A stretch of DNA of 64,000 nucleotides from Candidatus Omnitrophota bacterium (GTDB taxonomy: Bacteria > Omnitrophota > Gorgyraeia > Gygaellales > Profunditerraquicolaceae): positions 21,636 to 85,635 of the forward strand of contig JAQUOD010000003.1 in the NCBI GenBank assembly GCA_028717245.1. Direction: 5' to 3'. Position 1 is the first letter of the stretch, and every line of letters starts with the position of its first letter. Of this stretch, positions 2,744 to 8,907 are shown one piece after another. A program made the position numbers and the translations under genes. The notes beneath the pieces were generated by a model, which saw only the letters and a program-made list of their open reading frames with translations, was not told the origin of the DNA and ran no database searches.

Positions 2744-2953
2744 TTGTCAAGCAAAATGTTCGATAAAAGATTAAAACAATTAAGAAAGAAAGCTGGCTGG
2801 TCTCAGCAGAGATTAGCAGAAAAGGCCGGTTTATCTTATAACGTTATAACTAAGATCGAGCAAGGAGCAGCTAAGAATCCAAATATTCAAACTATGATTA
2901 AACTCGCTAATGCTTTTCAGATTAGCTTAGATGATCTTGTGGGCAGAAAGTAA
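2744..2953 (+). CDS. XRE-family helix-turn-helix regulator, controller (C-protein)-like; TTG start at 2744 or ATG at 2756
   Basis: 69 aa; LKQLRKKAGWSQQRLAEKAGLSYNVITKIEQG is a classical HTH_3 motif. Lies at the head of the methyltransferase operon; TATAAT at 2730-2735. Confidence 0.75.
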   Translation: MSSKMFDKRLKQLRKKAGWSQQRLAEKAGLSYNVITKIEQGAAKNPNIQTMIKLANAFQISLDDLVGRK

Positions 2954-3045
2954 TTGACAAAAGTAAATTTCTATGGTAAGGTATATCCACAATCAGGTAA
3001 AAGTGGTATGTTCGAAGGGGGAACTGCCACGTTAAAATAATTAAA

Positions 3046-3074
3046 ACCTTCGCTCAAAAGCGAAGGTTTTTTGT
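3046..3074 (+). terminator. Rho-independent terminator (ACCTTCG-loop-CGAAGGT + TTTTTTG) placed between the regulator gene and the first methyltransferase gene
   Basis: 7-bp GC-containing stem followed by a T tract, 8 nt before the ATG at 3082. Preceded by TTGACA (2944-2949) with TGgTAAGGT as an extended -10. Confidence 0.5.
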
Positions 3075-3081
3075 TTATACT

Positions 3082-4152
3082 ATGCGCTATTACGGTTGTA
3101 AAAACAGACTTTTGGATTTTCTTGAAGAAGGAGTTGCAAAAACTGGCATTAACCATGGGTCCAGTTTTTGCGACTTATTCAGCGGGACTACTGTTGTCGC
3201 GCAGCATTTCAAAAGAAAAGGGTTTACTGTTTTTACAAATGATATTATGGAATTTTCATATGCTATTGCTAGAACATATATCAAAAATAATCAATATCCA
3301 TTTTTTAAAGGTTTAAAAGGCCAAGTTATTGGAGTTAATGGTTGTAGAGAAAATATTATAAGAGTAATCGAGCACCTAAATAGCCTTCCGCCATCAAAAG
3401 GCTTTATCTACAATAATTATTGTCCCTCCGGTTCAAAAAATGGACCACATCAAAGGCAATATTTTTCTGATGAAAATGGTAAGAAAATAGATGCGATTCG
3501 TTCTGTAATTCAAGTTTGGAAAGAAGCAGAACTAATAAGCCTTGATGAATTTTATATTCTTTTATCTTCCTTGTTAGAAGCTGTGCCTTTTGTAGCAAAT
3601 ATTTCCGGTAATTATGCGGCTTTTTTGAAGTGTTGGGATCCCAGGGCGTTGAAGCCTTTAAAATTAAGAGTGCCTGTAATACCGCCGAGCAAAAGAAAAA
3701 ATAAAGTGTTTAAAGGCGATGCTAATGAACTGATAAAAAAATTGTCGTGTGATATCCTTTATATGGATCCACCGTATAATGAAAGGCAGTATGCCCCAAA
3801 TTATTTTATGCTCGAACTAATCGCTGAAGGTTGGTTTAACGGCGATAAGCCTCAAATATATGGAAAAACTGGCATGAGGCCATATGAGAATCAGAAGTCT
3901 TCATATTGCCAAAAGGTGAATGTCAAAATTACTTTTAAGGATTTAATAGAAAATGCCGATACTAAATATATGCTTCTAAGCTATAACGATGAAGGGTTAA
4001 TGAACGAAGAGGAAATAGTTGATGTTTTGTCATCCAGAGGAAGAGTAAGGATTCTTGAGCGAGATCATCGCAGGTATAAAAGCATAAATCAGGCTGAAAC
4101 GGATAGGCGCATAGTCAAAGAAAAGTTATATTTTGTTAAGGTGGCGAGATAA
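3082..4152 (+). CDS. DNA adenine (N6) methyltransferase, D12/Dam-like class
   Basis: N-terminal MRYYGCKNRLL (D12-class AdoMet motif) and YMDPPYNE (DPPY catalytic motif IV) at about aa 228; 356 aa. Confidence 0.8.
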   Translation: MRYYGCKNRLLDFLEEGVAKTGINHGSSFCDLFSGTTVVAQHFKRKGFTVFTNDIMEFSYAIARTYIKNNQYPFFKGLKGQVIGVNGCRENIIRVIEHLNSLPPSKGFIYNNYCPSGSKNGPHQRQYFSDENGKKIDAIRSVIQVWKEAELISLDEFYILLSSLLEAVPFVANISGNYAAFLKCWDPRALKPLKLRVPVIPPSKRKNKVFKGDANELIKKLSCDILYMDPPYNERQYAPNYFMLELIAEGWFNGDKPQIYGKTGMRPYENQKSSYCQKVNVKITFKDLIENADTKYMLLSYNDEGLMNEEEIVDVLSSRGRVRILERDHRRYKSINQAETDRRIVKEKLYFVKVAR

Positions 4153-6387: not shown

Positions 6388-6451
6388 ATTTCTAAGGATG
6401 CTTATTTTGGAAATGTTCCAATAACCGGAAACGGCCCGAAGGATTTAAGTC

Positions 6452-7882
6452 ATGGAACAACAAACAGAATTACAAGAGCTAAAACCTTGCCCTTCATGCG
6501 GAACTATGCTGCCGTATGACAAATGGCTTAAGGTAGTAGGTGTTTATGAAGAACAGCAAAAACACAGGAAACAGCTCGAGCAAGAACTTTCTAAAGCAAA
6601 AGAGCAAAGCCAAAAACTTAAAGAGGAATACAAAAACGTCAGAGAAAAAGAGAAACAATTAAAAAATCAATACTTGCAAAAAATAAAAGACAGTCGAGCA
6701 CAAGTTAAAGAAACACAAGGGAGATTAAAAAACAAAGAGCGTCTCTTAAAATCAGAACTTAAACAGAAATTTAACTTGCGAGAAGAAAAACTCCAATCTA
6801 GATTTGAAAAAGATAAACAAACAGCATTAAATCGGATCAGAAAAGAAGGGATAAGAATTGGCTCAGAAAAAGAGAAAATAAAAGCAGAAAAACTTAAAAA
6901 TGATATAGAGAAATTAAAAAAAGAACAAGTAGATGCTAAGGCAAAACTTAAAGAGAAATTTCAGAAAGAGCAAGAAAGAATTAAGCGTAAATTAGAAAGA
7001 GAAAAACATAAAGAACAGAAGCAGATTCGTCAAGATGGCATAAAGACGGGAATGGATAAACAAAGAGCGAGGACAGAGAAGGTAAGCCAAATGGCTGAGA
7101 AATATCGAAAAGCAAGAGATGAAGCAATTGAGAAAGCTAAGCAGCTTGAGGAAATGATAAAAAAAGGCACAACGCCACAGATAGAGGGTCTTGATTTTGA
7201 GCATGAGTTAGCTAATCAACTCAAACAGAAATTTCCAGAAGATGAAATAAAACCAACGGGACGAAAAGGTGATATTATTCAGACAGTGCAAGCGGAAAGC
7301 AAGAAGATCGGGAAGATTATTTATGAGTGTAAAAAGACCAAAGAATTTCAGAATCAATTCATAGAACAAATTCGACGCGATAAAGCTAGAGTAATTGCAG
7401 ACCATGGGATAATCGTTACTTGGGCTACCAAAGAAGACAGGCGGGGTTTTTGGGTCGAAGGCGATATAATTATAGTTCATCCCTATGGAGTTTTGGATAT
7501 GGCAACATTCCTTCGAGAAACATTACTACAGATGTATGCGCTTAAATTATCAAAGTCAGAATTTGAAACTAAAGGTAAGGCCATACTTGAATTTATGCAA
7601 TCCGAAGAATTTAGGACCCGAATTCAAGATTCTATTACGAAAAGTAAAGAAGCCTATGATATTTTGAAAAAGGAAGTCAAAACACATATGAATACTTGGA
7701 AAAAGAGATTCAAAATATACGAGGGAATCCATAGAAATACTAGCATTATTCAGAATACGGTTCGTTACGTGTTGCTTCACGGTAAAATTCCGGAGAAACT
7801 TCCTGAGGCAAAAGAACTCCCAGCTTTACCTCTATCAATGGAAACAACAGGAAATAAGTCCAGGCCTATTTTAGAGACATAA
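6452..7882 (+). CDS. Zinc-ribbon / long coiled-coil / C-terminal PD-(D/E)xK-like protein, resembles the DUF2130 family
   Basis: N-terminal CPSCG...Y, ~190 aa K/E-rich heptad-like region, then GDIIQTVQ...GKIIYECKK (D...E-x-K); 476 aa. Confidence 0.4.
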   Translation: MEQQTELQELKPCPSCGTMLPYDKWLKVVGVYEEQQKHRKQLEQELSKAKEQSQKLKEEYKNVREKEKQLKNQYLQKIKDSRAQVKETQGRLKNKERLLKSELKQKFNLREEKLQSRFEKDKQTALNRIRKEGIRIGSEKEKIKAEKLKNDIEKLKKEQVDAKAKLKEKFQKEQERIKRKLEREKHKEQKQIRQDGIKTGMDKQRARTEKVSQMAEKYRKARDEAIEKAKQLEEMIKKGTTPQIEGLDFEHELANQLKQKFPEDEIKPTGRKGDIIQTVQAESKKIGKIIYECKKTKEFQNQFIEQIRRDKARVIADHGIIVTWATKEDRRGFWVEGDIIIVHPYGVLDMATFLRETLLQMYALKLSKSEFETKGKAILEFMQSEEFRTRIQDSITKSKEAYDILKKEVKTHMNTWKKRFKIYEGIHRNTSIIQNTVRYVLLHGKIPEKLPEAKELPALPLSMETTGNKSRPILET

Positions 7883-7953
7883 ATGTCGATTTTCATTTTT
7901 TCTTTATAGCGGGAACTTGCTTTAAAGATAATTTCTCAATTCTTTTCATTCAT

Positions 7954-8907
7954 ATGAAGGATTTATTTGGAAATCAGAAAGATAAAAATCAGCTTATTAA
8001 TCTTAATCTATTTTGCGATGAAGCTGAATCTCAAGGTTGGCTGTATCTAGGGATTCTGATAATTCCAGTGGCAAGGGAAAATGAATTCATTCAAGATTTG
8101 CTAAACTGTCGTTGTGGTAATCCTGCTAAGAATACAATTTGGGGTGAATGCGTAGACATTTGTAGACATCATGCTAAGAATAATACGCATATTCATTTTA
8201 AAGATATTCACAAGGCAAAGGACAAGTTTTTTATCGCCAAAAAATGGATAGAATATTTACTGTCAGATCGAGAAATAATTCATTTTTACATATTAGGCTT
8301 AGATATCAATAAAATAGACCTATCTCAATTCGGAGAACGGAAACAACGCAGTAATATTTACAATAGATTCTTTAGAACAGCGATTTTAAAATCAGTTAAG
8401 TCGTACTTCCATAAATGGGATACCATTGTAATAGATAATATTTATCACGATAATAATCGATCGTTAGAAACACATAAACATTTTCCTTGGCATCCGATAT
8501 TCTTTATATCAAGCAACGATGAAAAAATTACAATAAAAGCAAAGAATGTTACTTTTATTGATTCCGATCATAGATTATCGGGGAGTCAATATTCTCACCT
8601 TATTCAATTTATGGATTTGGTATTAGGATGTGTGCATAATTGTTTGCATCACACTTCAAAAGATAATGATAAGGAGATAATTGCTTTACAATCTTTAAAG
8701 CTAATACAGCGGATTATTGATAAGCCAAATAATCGCAACAGCCAATATAACTATGTGGGTAGACAAAAAATAGAATTTTTTCCAAAGTATGATTTGAGGA
8801 ATCTAAATGAAAGTGAACTGGAGTGTGAAAACAAAAGGATGGGAGCATTTTATACAGGAAGACATATTAAGATAAAGGATAGAAACCAGATTACGCTTTT
8901 TAATTAA
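7954..8907 (+). CDS. Hypothetical protein, DUF3800-like (LFCDEAES..WLYLGILII resembles the N-terminal yiDESG...fvlggvvi signature)
   Basis: 317 aa, AT-rich, last gene of the operon; the family call comes from motif resemblance only. Confidence 0.3.
   Translation: MKDLFGNQKDKNQLINLNLFCDEAESQGWLYLGILIIPVARENEFIQDLLNCRCGNPAKNTIWGECVDICRHHAKNNTHIHFKDIHKAKDKFFIAKKWIEYLLSDREIIHFYILGLDINKIDLSQFGERKQRSNIYNRFFRTAILKSVKSYFHKWDTIVIDNIYHDNNRSLETHKHFPWHPIFFISSNDEKITIKAKNVTFIDSDHRLSGSQYSHLIQFMDLVLGCVHNCLHHTSKDNDKEIIALQSLKLIQRIIDKPNNRNSQYNYVGRQKIEFFPKYDLRNLNESELECENKRMGAFYTGRHIKIKDRNQITLFN

Follow-up and report, generated by a model that had tools for sequence, protein, structure and literature searches.

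How is DNA cleaved by a restriction-modification (R-M) cassette in which the place of the restriction endonuclease (REase) is taken by a protein with degenerate homing-endonuclease motifs? This question is raised by a compact gene cluster at positions 2744-8907 of a 64,000-nt stretch of Candidatus Omnitrophota DNA (contig JAQUOD010000003.1), here called the window, to whose coordinates all positions refer unless a numbered comparison locus (L001 and so on; genomes and metagenome contigs) is named. An earlier note, made from the letters of the sequence, had described the cluster as one seven-gene operon consisting of a controller, two DNA methyltransferases (MTases) of different classes, an atypical nuclease pair and two nuclease-like proteins. 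The seven open reading frames (7/7, all on the plus strand, where the note had placed them) and the AT-rich island are real, yet comparison with related loci resolves them not into one system but into a predicted four-gene R-M cassette and three unrelated genes. It is rather likely that the cassette is a Type II R-M system with a split FokI-like enzyme, in which a domesticated, catalytically dead LAGLIDADG scaffold (g4) reads the DNA and a small second protein (g5) cleaves it. The cassette is composed of the following features:

2954-3081, plus strand: promoter-like TTGACA and R-M leader of about 85 nt; the leader and its hairpin recur in L008 and L012 (both Omnitrophota)
3082-4152, plus strand: M1, a D12-class (alpha) DNA N6-adenine MTase with DPPY (PF02086 1.9e-38; PADLOC MTase_II 3e-95)
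4152-4961, plus strand: M2, a PF01555-type N4/N6 DNA MTase with SPPY (PF01555 2.3e-38; PADLOC MTase_II 7e-50; PDB 2zie 2e-22)
4966-5895, plus strand: g4, 309 amino acids (aa), proposed DNA-recognition subunit (structure prediction and fold search)
5896-6387, plus strand: g5, 163 aa, proposed catalytic subunit, a stand-alone PD-(D/E)xK nuclease (structure prediction and fold search)

The four genes are tightly joined. M1 and M2 overlap in TAATG (4150-4154), M2 stops at 4961 and leaves a 4-nt gap before the ATG of g4 at 4966, which is preceded by an AAGGAG Shine-Dalgarno sequence, and the TAA of g4 (5893-5895) abuts the ATG of g5 (5896). These junctions, which point to translational coupling, were counted in favour of a cassette. 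The close contacts described before (4152, 4961/4966, 5895/5896) were thus found again, as was the AT-rich composition, with a GC content of 0.30-0.40 over about 2500-9000 and of 0.42-0.52 in the flanks. A single seven-gene operon is nevertheless not supported, because a hairpin lies between M1 and the helix-turn-helix (HTH) gene upstream, gaps of 64 and 71 nt precede the two downstream genes g6 and g7 (a DUF2130 and a DUF3800 gene), neither of these is conserved with the cassette, and homology to L008, another Omnitrophota genome, is limited to 2998-6395. Over this part L008 has 82 % DNA identity to the window; the shared stretch comprises the TTGACA promoter-like site and leader, M1, M2, g4 and g5, whereas the surroundings are unrelated and lack the HTH gene, g6 and g7. 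Positions 2998-6395 are therefore delimited by this alignment as a discrete 3.4-kb R-M module made up of promoter and leader, a D12 MTase, a permuted PF01555 MTase, g4 and g5.

Pfam and PADLOC matches bear out the assignments of the HTH and of the two MTases, and with them an R-M-type core with MTases of different classes. In Pfam, NCBIfam, PADLOC, PHROGs and the PDB sequences, g4 and g5 matched no entry, REase models included, whether as single sequences, as profiles or in fused and diverged versions, so that g4, at the usual position of the restriction gene, is indeed no recognisable REase. The folds of both proteins were resolved by structure prediction alone, after these fruitless sequence searches, and prediction and fold search agree with the note on a degenerate LAGLIDADG fold in 4966-5895 and a PD-(D/E)xK fold in 5896-6387. 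Neither the hidden Markov model libraries nor a literature search gave a description of such a nuclease combination.

In the predicted structure, residues 1 to about 245 of g4 form a single-chain double LAGLIDADG fold, which is followed by a Cys/His-rich C-terminal tail; the LAGLIDADG helices terminate at residues 19 and 137. The hhalign alignment sets AYLLGLIVGRG of g4 against AYLLGLIIGDG of I-DmoI (64 % identity across 14 residues of the first motif), with R19 falling on the catalytic D21. The second motif, FLRGIADVTG, was matched by pattern to FIKGLYVAEG and places T137 on E117. In I-DmoI the metal is bound by D21 and E117, and the regulator WhiA carries Arg and Gly at these positions (PMC3384342). 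Among 188 full-length relatives of g4 neither position is ever acidic, the counts being R146/K6/N3/G3/S1 at position 19 and T80/A78/S7/C7/I5/G4/V2/N1 at position 137. Both metal-binding acidic residues are, by this alignment, lost in g4, and its canonical site is predicted to be unable to cut. Conservation is higher in the second half-domain (mean 0.64 versus 0.55 in the first) and reaches its peak, up to 1.00, in a beta3'-beta4' hairpin with the pattern WGHPNxR...REHQxK (residues 186-214), which sits on the surface that contacts DNA in homing endonucleases. In the tail C253, H266, H282, C290 and C295 are near-invariant and probably form a zinc site. The fold search with g4 returned no nuclease fold besides the LAGLIDADG enzymes. 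No relatives of g4 were found in the viral contigs of IMG/VR, which fits a cellular defence gene.

In its predicted fold, the partner protein g5 combines an alpha/beta core of the restriction-endonuclease type with a D...(D/E)xK motif, as is characteristic of the PD-(D/E)xK superfamily. The g5 sequence is 100 % identical to an NCBI Omnitrophica protein, in keeping with an Omnitrophota source. Its predicted catalytic residues are E5, D63, E80-C-K82 and Q93, of which D63, E80, K82 and Q93 are invariant over 44 g5 sequences. The fold search matched it to AF1548 (9.3), NucS (8.7), Can2, PaqCI and NgoMIV (8.2 each), FokI (8.1), LlaBIII (7.9), AspBHI (7.7), N.BspD6I (7.6), MspJI and the small subunit of R.BspD6I (7.4 each). 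Many of these top matches, namely FokI, PaqCI, MspJI, AspBHI, LlaBIII and the R.BspD6I small subunit, are modules that cleave without specificity of their own and are attached to a separate reader.

A scan of 185,579 species, each represented by one genome, showed relatives of g4 in 43 species of Bacteria and Archaea; their neighbours were compared by phmmer across all loci. Bacterial hosts include Omnitrophota, Elusimicrobiota, Planctomycetota, many Patescibacteria, Chloroflexota and a cultured member of the Bacillaceae, Calidifontibacillus oryziterrae ZYK; archaeal hosts are found among Bathyarchaeia, Caldarchaeum, the Asgard groups Jord- and Njordarchaeia, Methanosarcinales, Woesearchaeota and Nitrosopumilus. 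In C. oryziterrae ZYK the locus (L036) is situated at about 449.5-451.8 kb of NZ_ANOK01000003.1. The range of the family thus covers bacteria of the candidate phyla radiation, DPANN, Asgard and Bathyarchaeia. In essentially every locus with enough flanking sequence g4 is adjoined by g5 and by an orthologue of M2 (E 1e-85 to 1e-186). Where g4 homologues share 50-75 % identity, the order is always PF01555 MTase-g4-g5, with or without a D12 MTase, and the outer neighbours differ; g4 is always the third or fourth gene of an MTase cassette, in varied genomic contexts. Synteny of the nuclease genes with an MTase was accordingly found in the 43 species loci and also in metagenome loci, and what it retains is the PF01555 MTase, g4 and g5 only, the D12 MTase being optional.

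The family is small: an exhaustive profile search of 1.84 billion cluster representatives (clusters at 50 % identity) detected g4 relatives in 389 clusters, 247 of them at E<=1e-10. Three architectures were seen: g4 alone with about 300 aa, a fused protein of about 540 aa, and proteins of 900-1300 aa in which g4 is C-terminal. The protein of about 540 aa, a fusion of g4 and g5, is encoded in at least 12 genome loci, and about 25 of the cluster representatives show it too. This fused clade is diverged (about 30 % identity) and occurs in Patescibacteria, Gastranaerophilales, Actinomycetota and others; it retains all catalytic residues of g5, E5, D63, E80, K82 and Q93. In many fused loci a second, stand-alone g5 paralogue comes next, in which D63 is kept and N-R-S replaces E-x-K, so that it is probably an inactive partner subunit. 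The MTases of the fused loci are convergent and lie downstream. That fused and split forms of g4 and g5 both exist in nature supports a modular layout.

Some further features of these variants may be recorded. Members of the fused clade (L034, L038, L041, L042, L045, L049) have a zinc ribbon of the pattern CxxC...CxxxxC inserted into LAGLIDADG half-domain 1. L045 is an example of the gene arrangement, with the fusion at 7998-9623 and the second g5 paralogue at 9627-10133. In the proteins of 900-1300 aa (L040 754-4128; P0390, P0391, P0393, P0396, P0434) the g4 domain stands behind a region of about 700-1000 aa, for which no Pfam or PADLOC match was found. The next gene in L040 is a PF01555 MTase, and g5 was not detected there.

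In the mechanism proposed here, positions 2998-6395 would be a self-contained, horizontally mobile Type II R-M cassette. M2, and M1 where it is present, would protect the host copies of the target. As a monomeric, pseudo-dimeric LAGLIDADG scaffold, g4 would read the unmethylated target by its beta-sheet saddle, mainly with the conserved second half-domain, and would recruit g5, probably via the Cys/His-rich tail. The cut would be made by g5, a FokI/Mrr-like PD-(D/E)xK module, probably after dimerising. Together with the HTH, DUF2130 and DUF3800 genes the cassette would form the cargo of a serine-recombinase island in tRNA-Ala. The data behind this proposal are the gene order and coupling, both folds, the loss of the LAGLIDADG residues, the retention of the PD-(D/E)xK residues, the synteny with MTases and the fusions; from them we infer sequence reading by g4, the block by methylation, the dimerisation of g5, the cut position and the target sequence. 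With slightly better than even probability, this is the first natural REase family in which a nuclease-dead LAGLIDADG reader has a FokI-like PD-(D/E)xK module as its partner or as a fused domain, and its sites may be longer or unusually asymmetric.

Among known enzymes, the Type IIS enzymes FokI and PaqCI likewise have a separate reader and a non-specific PD-(D/E)xK cleavage domain. The reader of FokI, however, consists of winged-helix/CAP-type domains, whereas the reader proposed here has a LAGLIDADG fold and is located on a polypeptide separate from the cleaver. Large and small subunits are known from the heterodimeric Type IIS/IIT enzymes R.BspD6I, BtsI and BsrDI, but their large subunit is an active PD-(D/E)xK nickase, while g4 has another fold and no recognisable active nuclease site. 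The closest fold relatives of g4 are the LAGLIDADG homing endonucleases I-DmoI, I-Tsp061I, PI-PfuI and PI-SceI. It differs from these in the family-wide replacement of the catalytic Asp/Glu (R19, T/A137), in its location outside any intron or intein, in the additional Cys/His-rich tail, in the obligate nuclease partner and in the lack of a Pfam LAGLIDADG match. WhiA (DUF199) also contains a domesticated, dead LAGLIDADG domain, joined to an HTH, but is a conserved housekeeping regulator of Gram-positive bacteria; g4 belongs to an R-M cassette, is fused to a nuclease in some lineages, carries the Cys/His tail instead of an HTH and showed no Pfam match at E<=0.1 to WhiA_N, LAGLIDADG_WhiA or HTH_WhiA. 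A dead LAGLIDADG reader combined with a PD-(D/E)xK cleaver has been engineered in chimeras of inactive I-SceI with FokI, PvuII or MutH (PMC2685105, PMC3258161, PMC3627573). These chimeras are man-made, and g4/g5 would be their natural, MTase-coupled counterpart. A literature search, which did not cover REBASE, revealed no report that links the LAGLIDADG fold to an R-M system.

Several points weigh against this proposal. LAGLIDADG enzymes normally read 14-40 bp and a small Type II MTase 4-6 bp, a difference in specificity that the model would have to bridge. PvuII and other stand-alone REases of about 160 aa recognise their sequences unaided; if g5 were self-sufficient in the same manner it might need no reader. 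The main caveat is that the model is built on sequence comparison and predicted structure. The hairpin at 186-214 could also serve in cryptic catalysis or in metal binding instead of reading DNA. Finally, WhiA, whose dead LAGLIDADG domain has Arg at the first acidic position, may not bind DNA through that domain (PMC3384342), and DNA reading by g4 is for this reason not guaranteed.

In a rather unlikely alternative, g5 is an orthodox, self-sufficient, sequence-specific Type IIP homodimer and g4 is not the DNA reader but an accessory protein, which might for example serve as activator or scaffold or, as a WhiA-like regulator, postpone restriction. A whole clade that fuses g4 to g5 and adds a g5 paralogue with degenerate ExK is more typical of reader-cleaver designs, detachable cleavage modules are among the top fold matches of g5, and g4 is the larger protein, is conserved at least as well and has its conserved hairpin on the DNA-binding surface of homing endonucleases. 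That both proteins cut, g4 nicking one strand via a non-canonical site formed by the invariant D135, H188, N190, E210 and H211 and g5 the other strand, in the manner of BspD6I and BtsI, is quite improbable. Apart from the LAGLIDADG enzymes the fold of g4 matches no nuclease, its conserved His and Cys are equally explicable as structural zinc ligands, and E210, Q212 and K214 alternate along a beta-strand and resemble DNA-contact residues.

Two further explanations concern the role and the extent of the system. The descent of g4 from homing endonucleases and the presence of the cassette in unrelated taxa and genomic contexts would suit a function of g4 and g5 in homing or mobility, with cleavage of empty target sites to spread the cassette, in place of a function in defence. 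This is very improbable, since the insertion contexts differ in each lineage examined and no common homing site was seen, the LAGLIDADG active sites are dead, and the invariant link to a protective MTase is an R-M signature. The view that all seven genes form one defence system, DUF2130 and DUF3800 proteins acting with the R-M core, is largely refuted and retains next to no probability. It could refer to the common strand and the short intergenic gaps, which the 91%-identical L060 shares with the window, and to a g7 homologue that lies 3 kb from an R-M cassette of the same kind in L055. But none of the 43 species loci has g6 or g7, the module stands alone in L008, and other g7 homologues are solitary amid housekeeping genes. 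In L087, the R-M part of which is 92 % identical, a SIR2-like gene (PADLOC SIR2 6.5e-10) and an unrelated gene for 317 aa take the place of g6 and g7. The split reader and cleaver encoded by g4 and g5 remains the preferred reading, with g6 and g7 outside the system.

If this reading is correct, homing endonucleases, which are selfish elements, have been turned to defence as DNA readers, and the reader-plus-cleaver design made by engineers from inactive I-SceI also arose in nature. The catalytic folds known for REases are PD-(D/E)xK, HNH, GIY-YIG, PLD and half-pipe, some of which are shared with homing endonucleases; a new fold would be added to this repertoire. The only case of cellular domestication of the LAGLIDADG fold found in the literature search was the regulator WhiA. 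The enzymes would also be a possible source of new specificities and of nicking or rare-cutting reagents, and the cultured host C. oryziterrae ZYK makes the idea directly testable.

The MTases of the cassette have the motifs expected in a Type II R-M system, with DPPY as catalytic motif IV in M1, and with FxGxG for the binding of S-adenosylmethionine and SPPY as motif IV in M2. M1 is an optional member present in a subset of the related loci, and in L028 it is fused with M2 into a single protein of 635 aa. Its closest plasmid homologues (43 %) are located in cassettes of two Dam-family MTases and one hypothetical protein, an arrangement typical of asymmetric sites. No named specificity for relatives of M1 was found among the MTase neighbours in annotated plasmids. 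M2 is circularly permuted, because FxGxG (residues 61-66) precedes SPPY (134-137) and the PF01555 model matches as two pieces in swapped order. An SPPY motif IV suggests N4-methylcytosine, and this is probably the modification made by M2, N6-methyladenine being possible. D12 and PF01555 MTases upstream of a nuclease are likewise found in DpnII-type cassettes (Dam-like DpnM, PF01555 DpnA, R.DpnII), and the PDB matches of M2 include DpnA-type structures (6e-13). The present cassette differs in that a homologue of R.DpnII is absent, M1 reaches no more than 17 bits with the Dam model and the relatives of M1 reside in two-MTase cassettes.

The leader ahead of M1 (2998-3081) matches L008 at about 7104-7186 and L012 at about 1732-1814. 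It contains first a small hairpin and then a strong terminator-like one (3043-3070), with a 12-bp stem and a T-run that end 11 nt before the ATG of M1; the latter hairpin may be an attenuator that controls the R-M module.

DNA avoidance gave no clue to the target. GATC is the most depleted 4-mer of the window (81 observed versus 229 expected, a ratio of 0.35) and ranks first in depletion in 14/35 host sequences (the window and 34 loci; pooled Z -21.4), without preference for particular flanks. It is equally depleted in sister contigs that have no R-M genes at the site in the recovered sequence, and it is the second most depleted 4-mer in 3/4 unrelated control loci. The avoidance can therefore not be attributed to the R-M module. 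The strong avoidance extends over these uncultured lineages, with a ratio of 0.35 in the window (noted for 9400-64000) and of 0.05-0.4 in the loci L056, L058 and L069-L081, with or without this R-M detected in the recovered sequence.

The three genes that share the island with the cassette are:

2744-2953, plus strand: small Cro/C1-type HTH protein (HTH_3 6e-18; PADLOC Control_protein 1.7e-8, behind generic HTH models)
6452-7882, plus strand: g6, coiled-coil protein with a C-terminal DUF2130 domain of the PD-(D/E)xK superfamily (PF09903 2.4e-25, residues 216-431)
7954-8907, plus strand: g7, DUF3800-family protein (PF12686 weak; homologues carry the domain)

The HTH protein had been taken for a C-protein-like controller, which should be conserved and co-transcribed with the R-M genes. 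Instead, a hairpin separates it from M1, the module occurs in L008 without it, and its homologues adjoin the inverted repeat of the island in L077, L082 and L087, of which L077 has no R-M genes in the recovered sequence and L082 a different cargo on the other side. The HTH gene is therefore assigned to the backbone of the island and not to the R-M module. Other loci have different upstream regulators. In L001/L002 (5467-6102 and 9813-11669), a 75%-identical copy of the system, a LexA-like (S24 peptidase) regulator gene is situated directly ahead of the D12 MTase; further on come AbiEii, a tyrosine integrase and a gene of the OLD family (AAA_15/AAA_21), as is typical of a defence island.

By their distribution, g6 and g7 are separate, swappable cargo genes; the earlier note would have abandoned them as parts of the system if they did not accompany MTases in other genomes, and this is what was found for both. 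The DUF2130 domain of g6 scores 89.7 bits against a cutoff of 26.7, and the putative Zn ribbon is a single CxxC. DUF2130 has been listed among the PD-(D/E)XK families with unknown function (PMC3424549). The gene was seen beside g5 only in the near-identical strains L010, L011 and L060. The match of g7 to PF12686 (19.0 bits, E 0.0024) is below the gathering cutoff of 21 bits, but several homologues (31-59 % identity) carry PF12686 or bear the name DUF3800. No g7 homologue was found next to g4 in the phmmer neighbour analysis of the species loci; except for the one in L055 they are stand-alone genes in unrelated contexts. In L055, at 3506-6109, a gene for an unknown protein of 343 aa and a Vsr/C5-methyltransferase pair are located between the R-M genes and the DUF3800 homologue.

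The island which carries all seven genes extends from about 589 to 9339, between a tRNA-Ala(GGC) and what would be its displaced terminator, which originally followed the tRNA; CCACCA is present at both junctions. Its features outside the cargo are:

475-2028, minus strand: large serine recombinase (integrase) with Resolvase, Recombinase and Zn_ribbon_recom domains (PHROG integrase 6e-83; NCBIfam CcrB-like 9e-36)
513-588, plus strand: tRNA-Ala(GGC), the 3' end of which, CCACCA (583-588), is the attL-like left junction (ARAGORN, Rfam, junction analysis)
2143-2643, no strand assigned: internal inverted att-like copy, in which 2143-2236 is the reverse complement of 580-673 (99 %)
8936-9345, no strand assigned: right inverted repeat and right junction with CCACCA at 9340-9345, followed by the terminator hairpin at 9359-9379

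To judge from the domains of the recombinase and the shared core, this is a large-serine-recombinase integrative element in tRNA-Ala. Positions 2216-2643 are the reverse complement of 8936-9362 (88 % overall, 100 % over 147 nt), and the reverse complement of 2143-2643 reads right arm, CCACCA, left arm, as would be expected of the junction in an excised circle. As a consequence of this internal inverted copy the recombinase gene is flanked by inverted repeats of 94 nt and the cargo by repeats of about 430 nt. An assembly artefact is rejected as their origin, since the copies have diverged (88 %) and at least 8 independent metagenome contigs have the same layout. A 26-mer across core and left arm matched 24 metagenome stretches; in at least 8 of these the inverted pair brackets the recombinase at a distance of about 1.6 kb, and the tRNA-Leu/tRNA-Ala host site is shared by 8. 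The predicted junction of an empty attB site had no exact match in the metagenome contigs, and a look-up of the exact recombinase sequence returned no record.

The cargo differs among these contigs. L085 has another D12 MTase, a SacI-like gene and a protein of 1290 aa, L082 has RhuM, an HTH and a SWIM/PDC-S62 protein, and in L087 the R-M cargo (7625-11415, 92 % identity) is opposite in orientation relative to the recombinase. Either the cargo segment inverts or the element integrates through either att-like copy. Because the cargo varies and is reversed in L087, the element is regarded as a variable-cargo defence island with cargo in either orientation. Such a carrier is unusual: its inverted att-like arms are duplicated, its defence cargo can be exchanged, and the cargo occurs in both orientations in nature.

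The copies of the long repeat are identical at the ends and differ in the centre by 10 compensatory base pairs in three GC-rich hairpins, which suggests a structured RNA or DNA element in the repeat. No known RNA family, including the motifs associated with DUF3800, was found with Rfam at gathering and permissive thresholds in the inverted repeats and near DUF3800 homologues, and with blastn and nhmmer neither the fetched loci nor the remaining window yielded another copy of the repeat. One repeat copy of about 410 nt begins 29 nt past g7, the DUF3800 gene. An association of DUF3800 genes with unexplained structured RNAs has been reported (PMC5737381).

The recombinase reading frame runs antisense through the tRNA-Ala (475-645, minus strand), so that its last 35 or so codons would differ between the integrated and the excised state, and a reading frame of 61 aa at 2099-2284 (plus strand) duplicates the alternative C-terminus of the recombinase. 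Further inverted pairs are located elsewhere in the window, at 18873-18932 / 30416-30475 (60 nt, 98 %) and 20241-20281 / 30294-30334 (41 nt, 93 %), and bracket about 10-11.5 kb.

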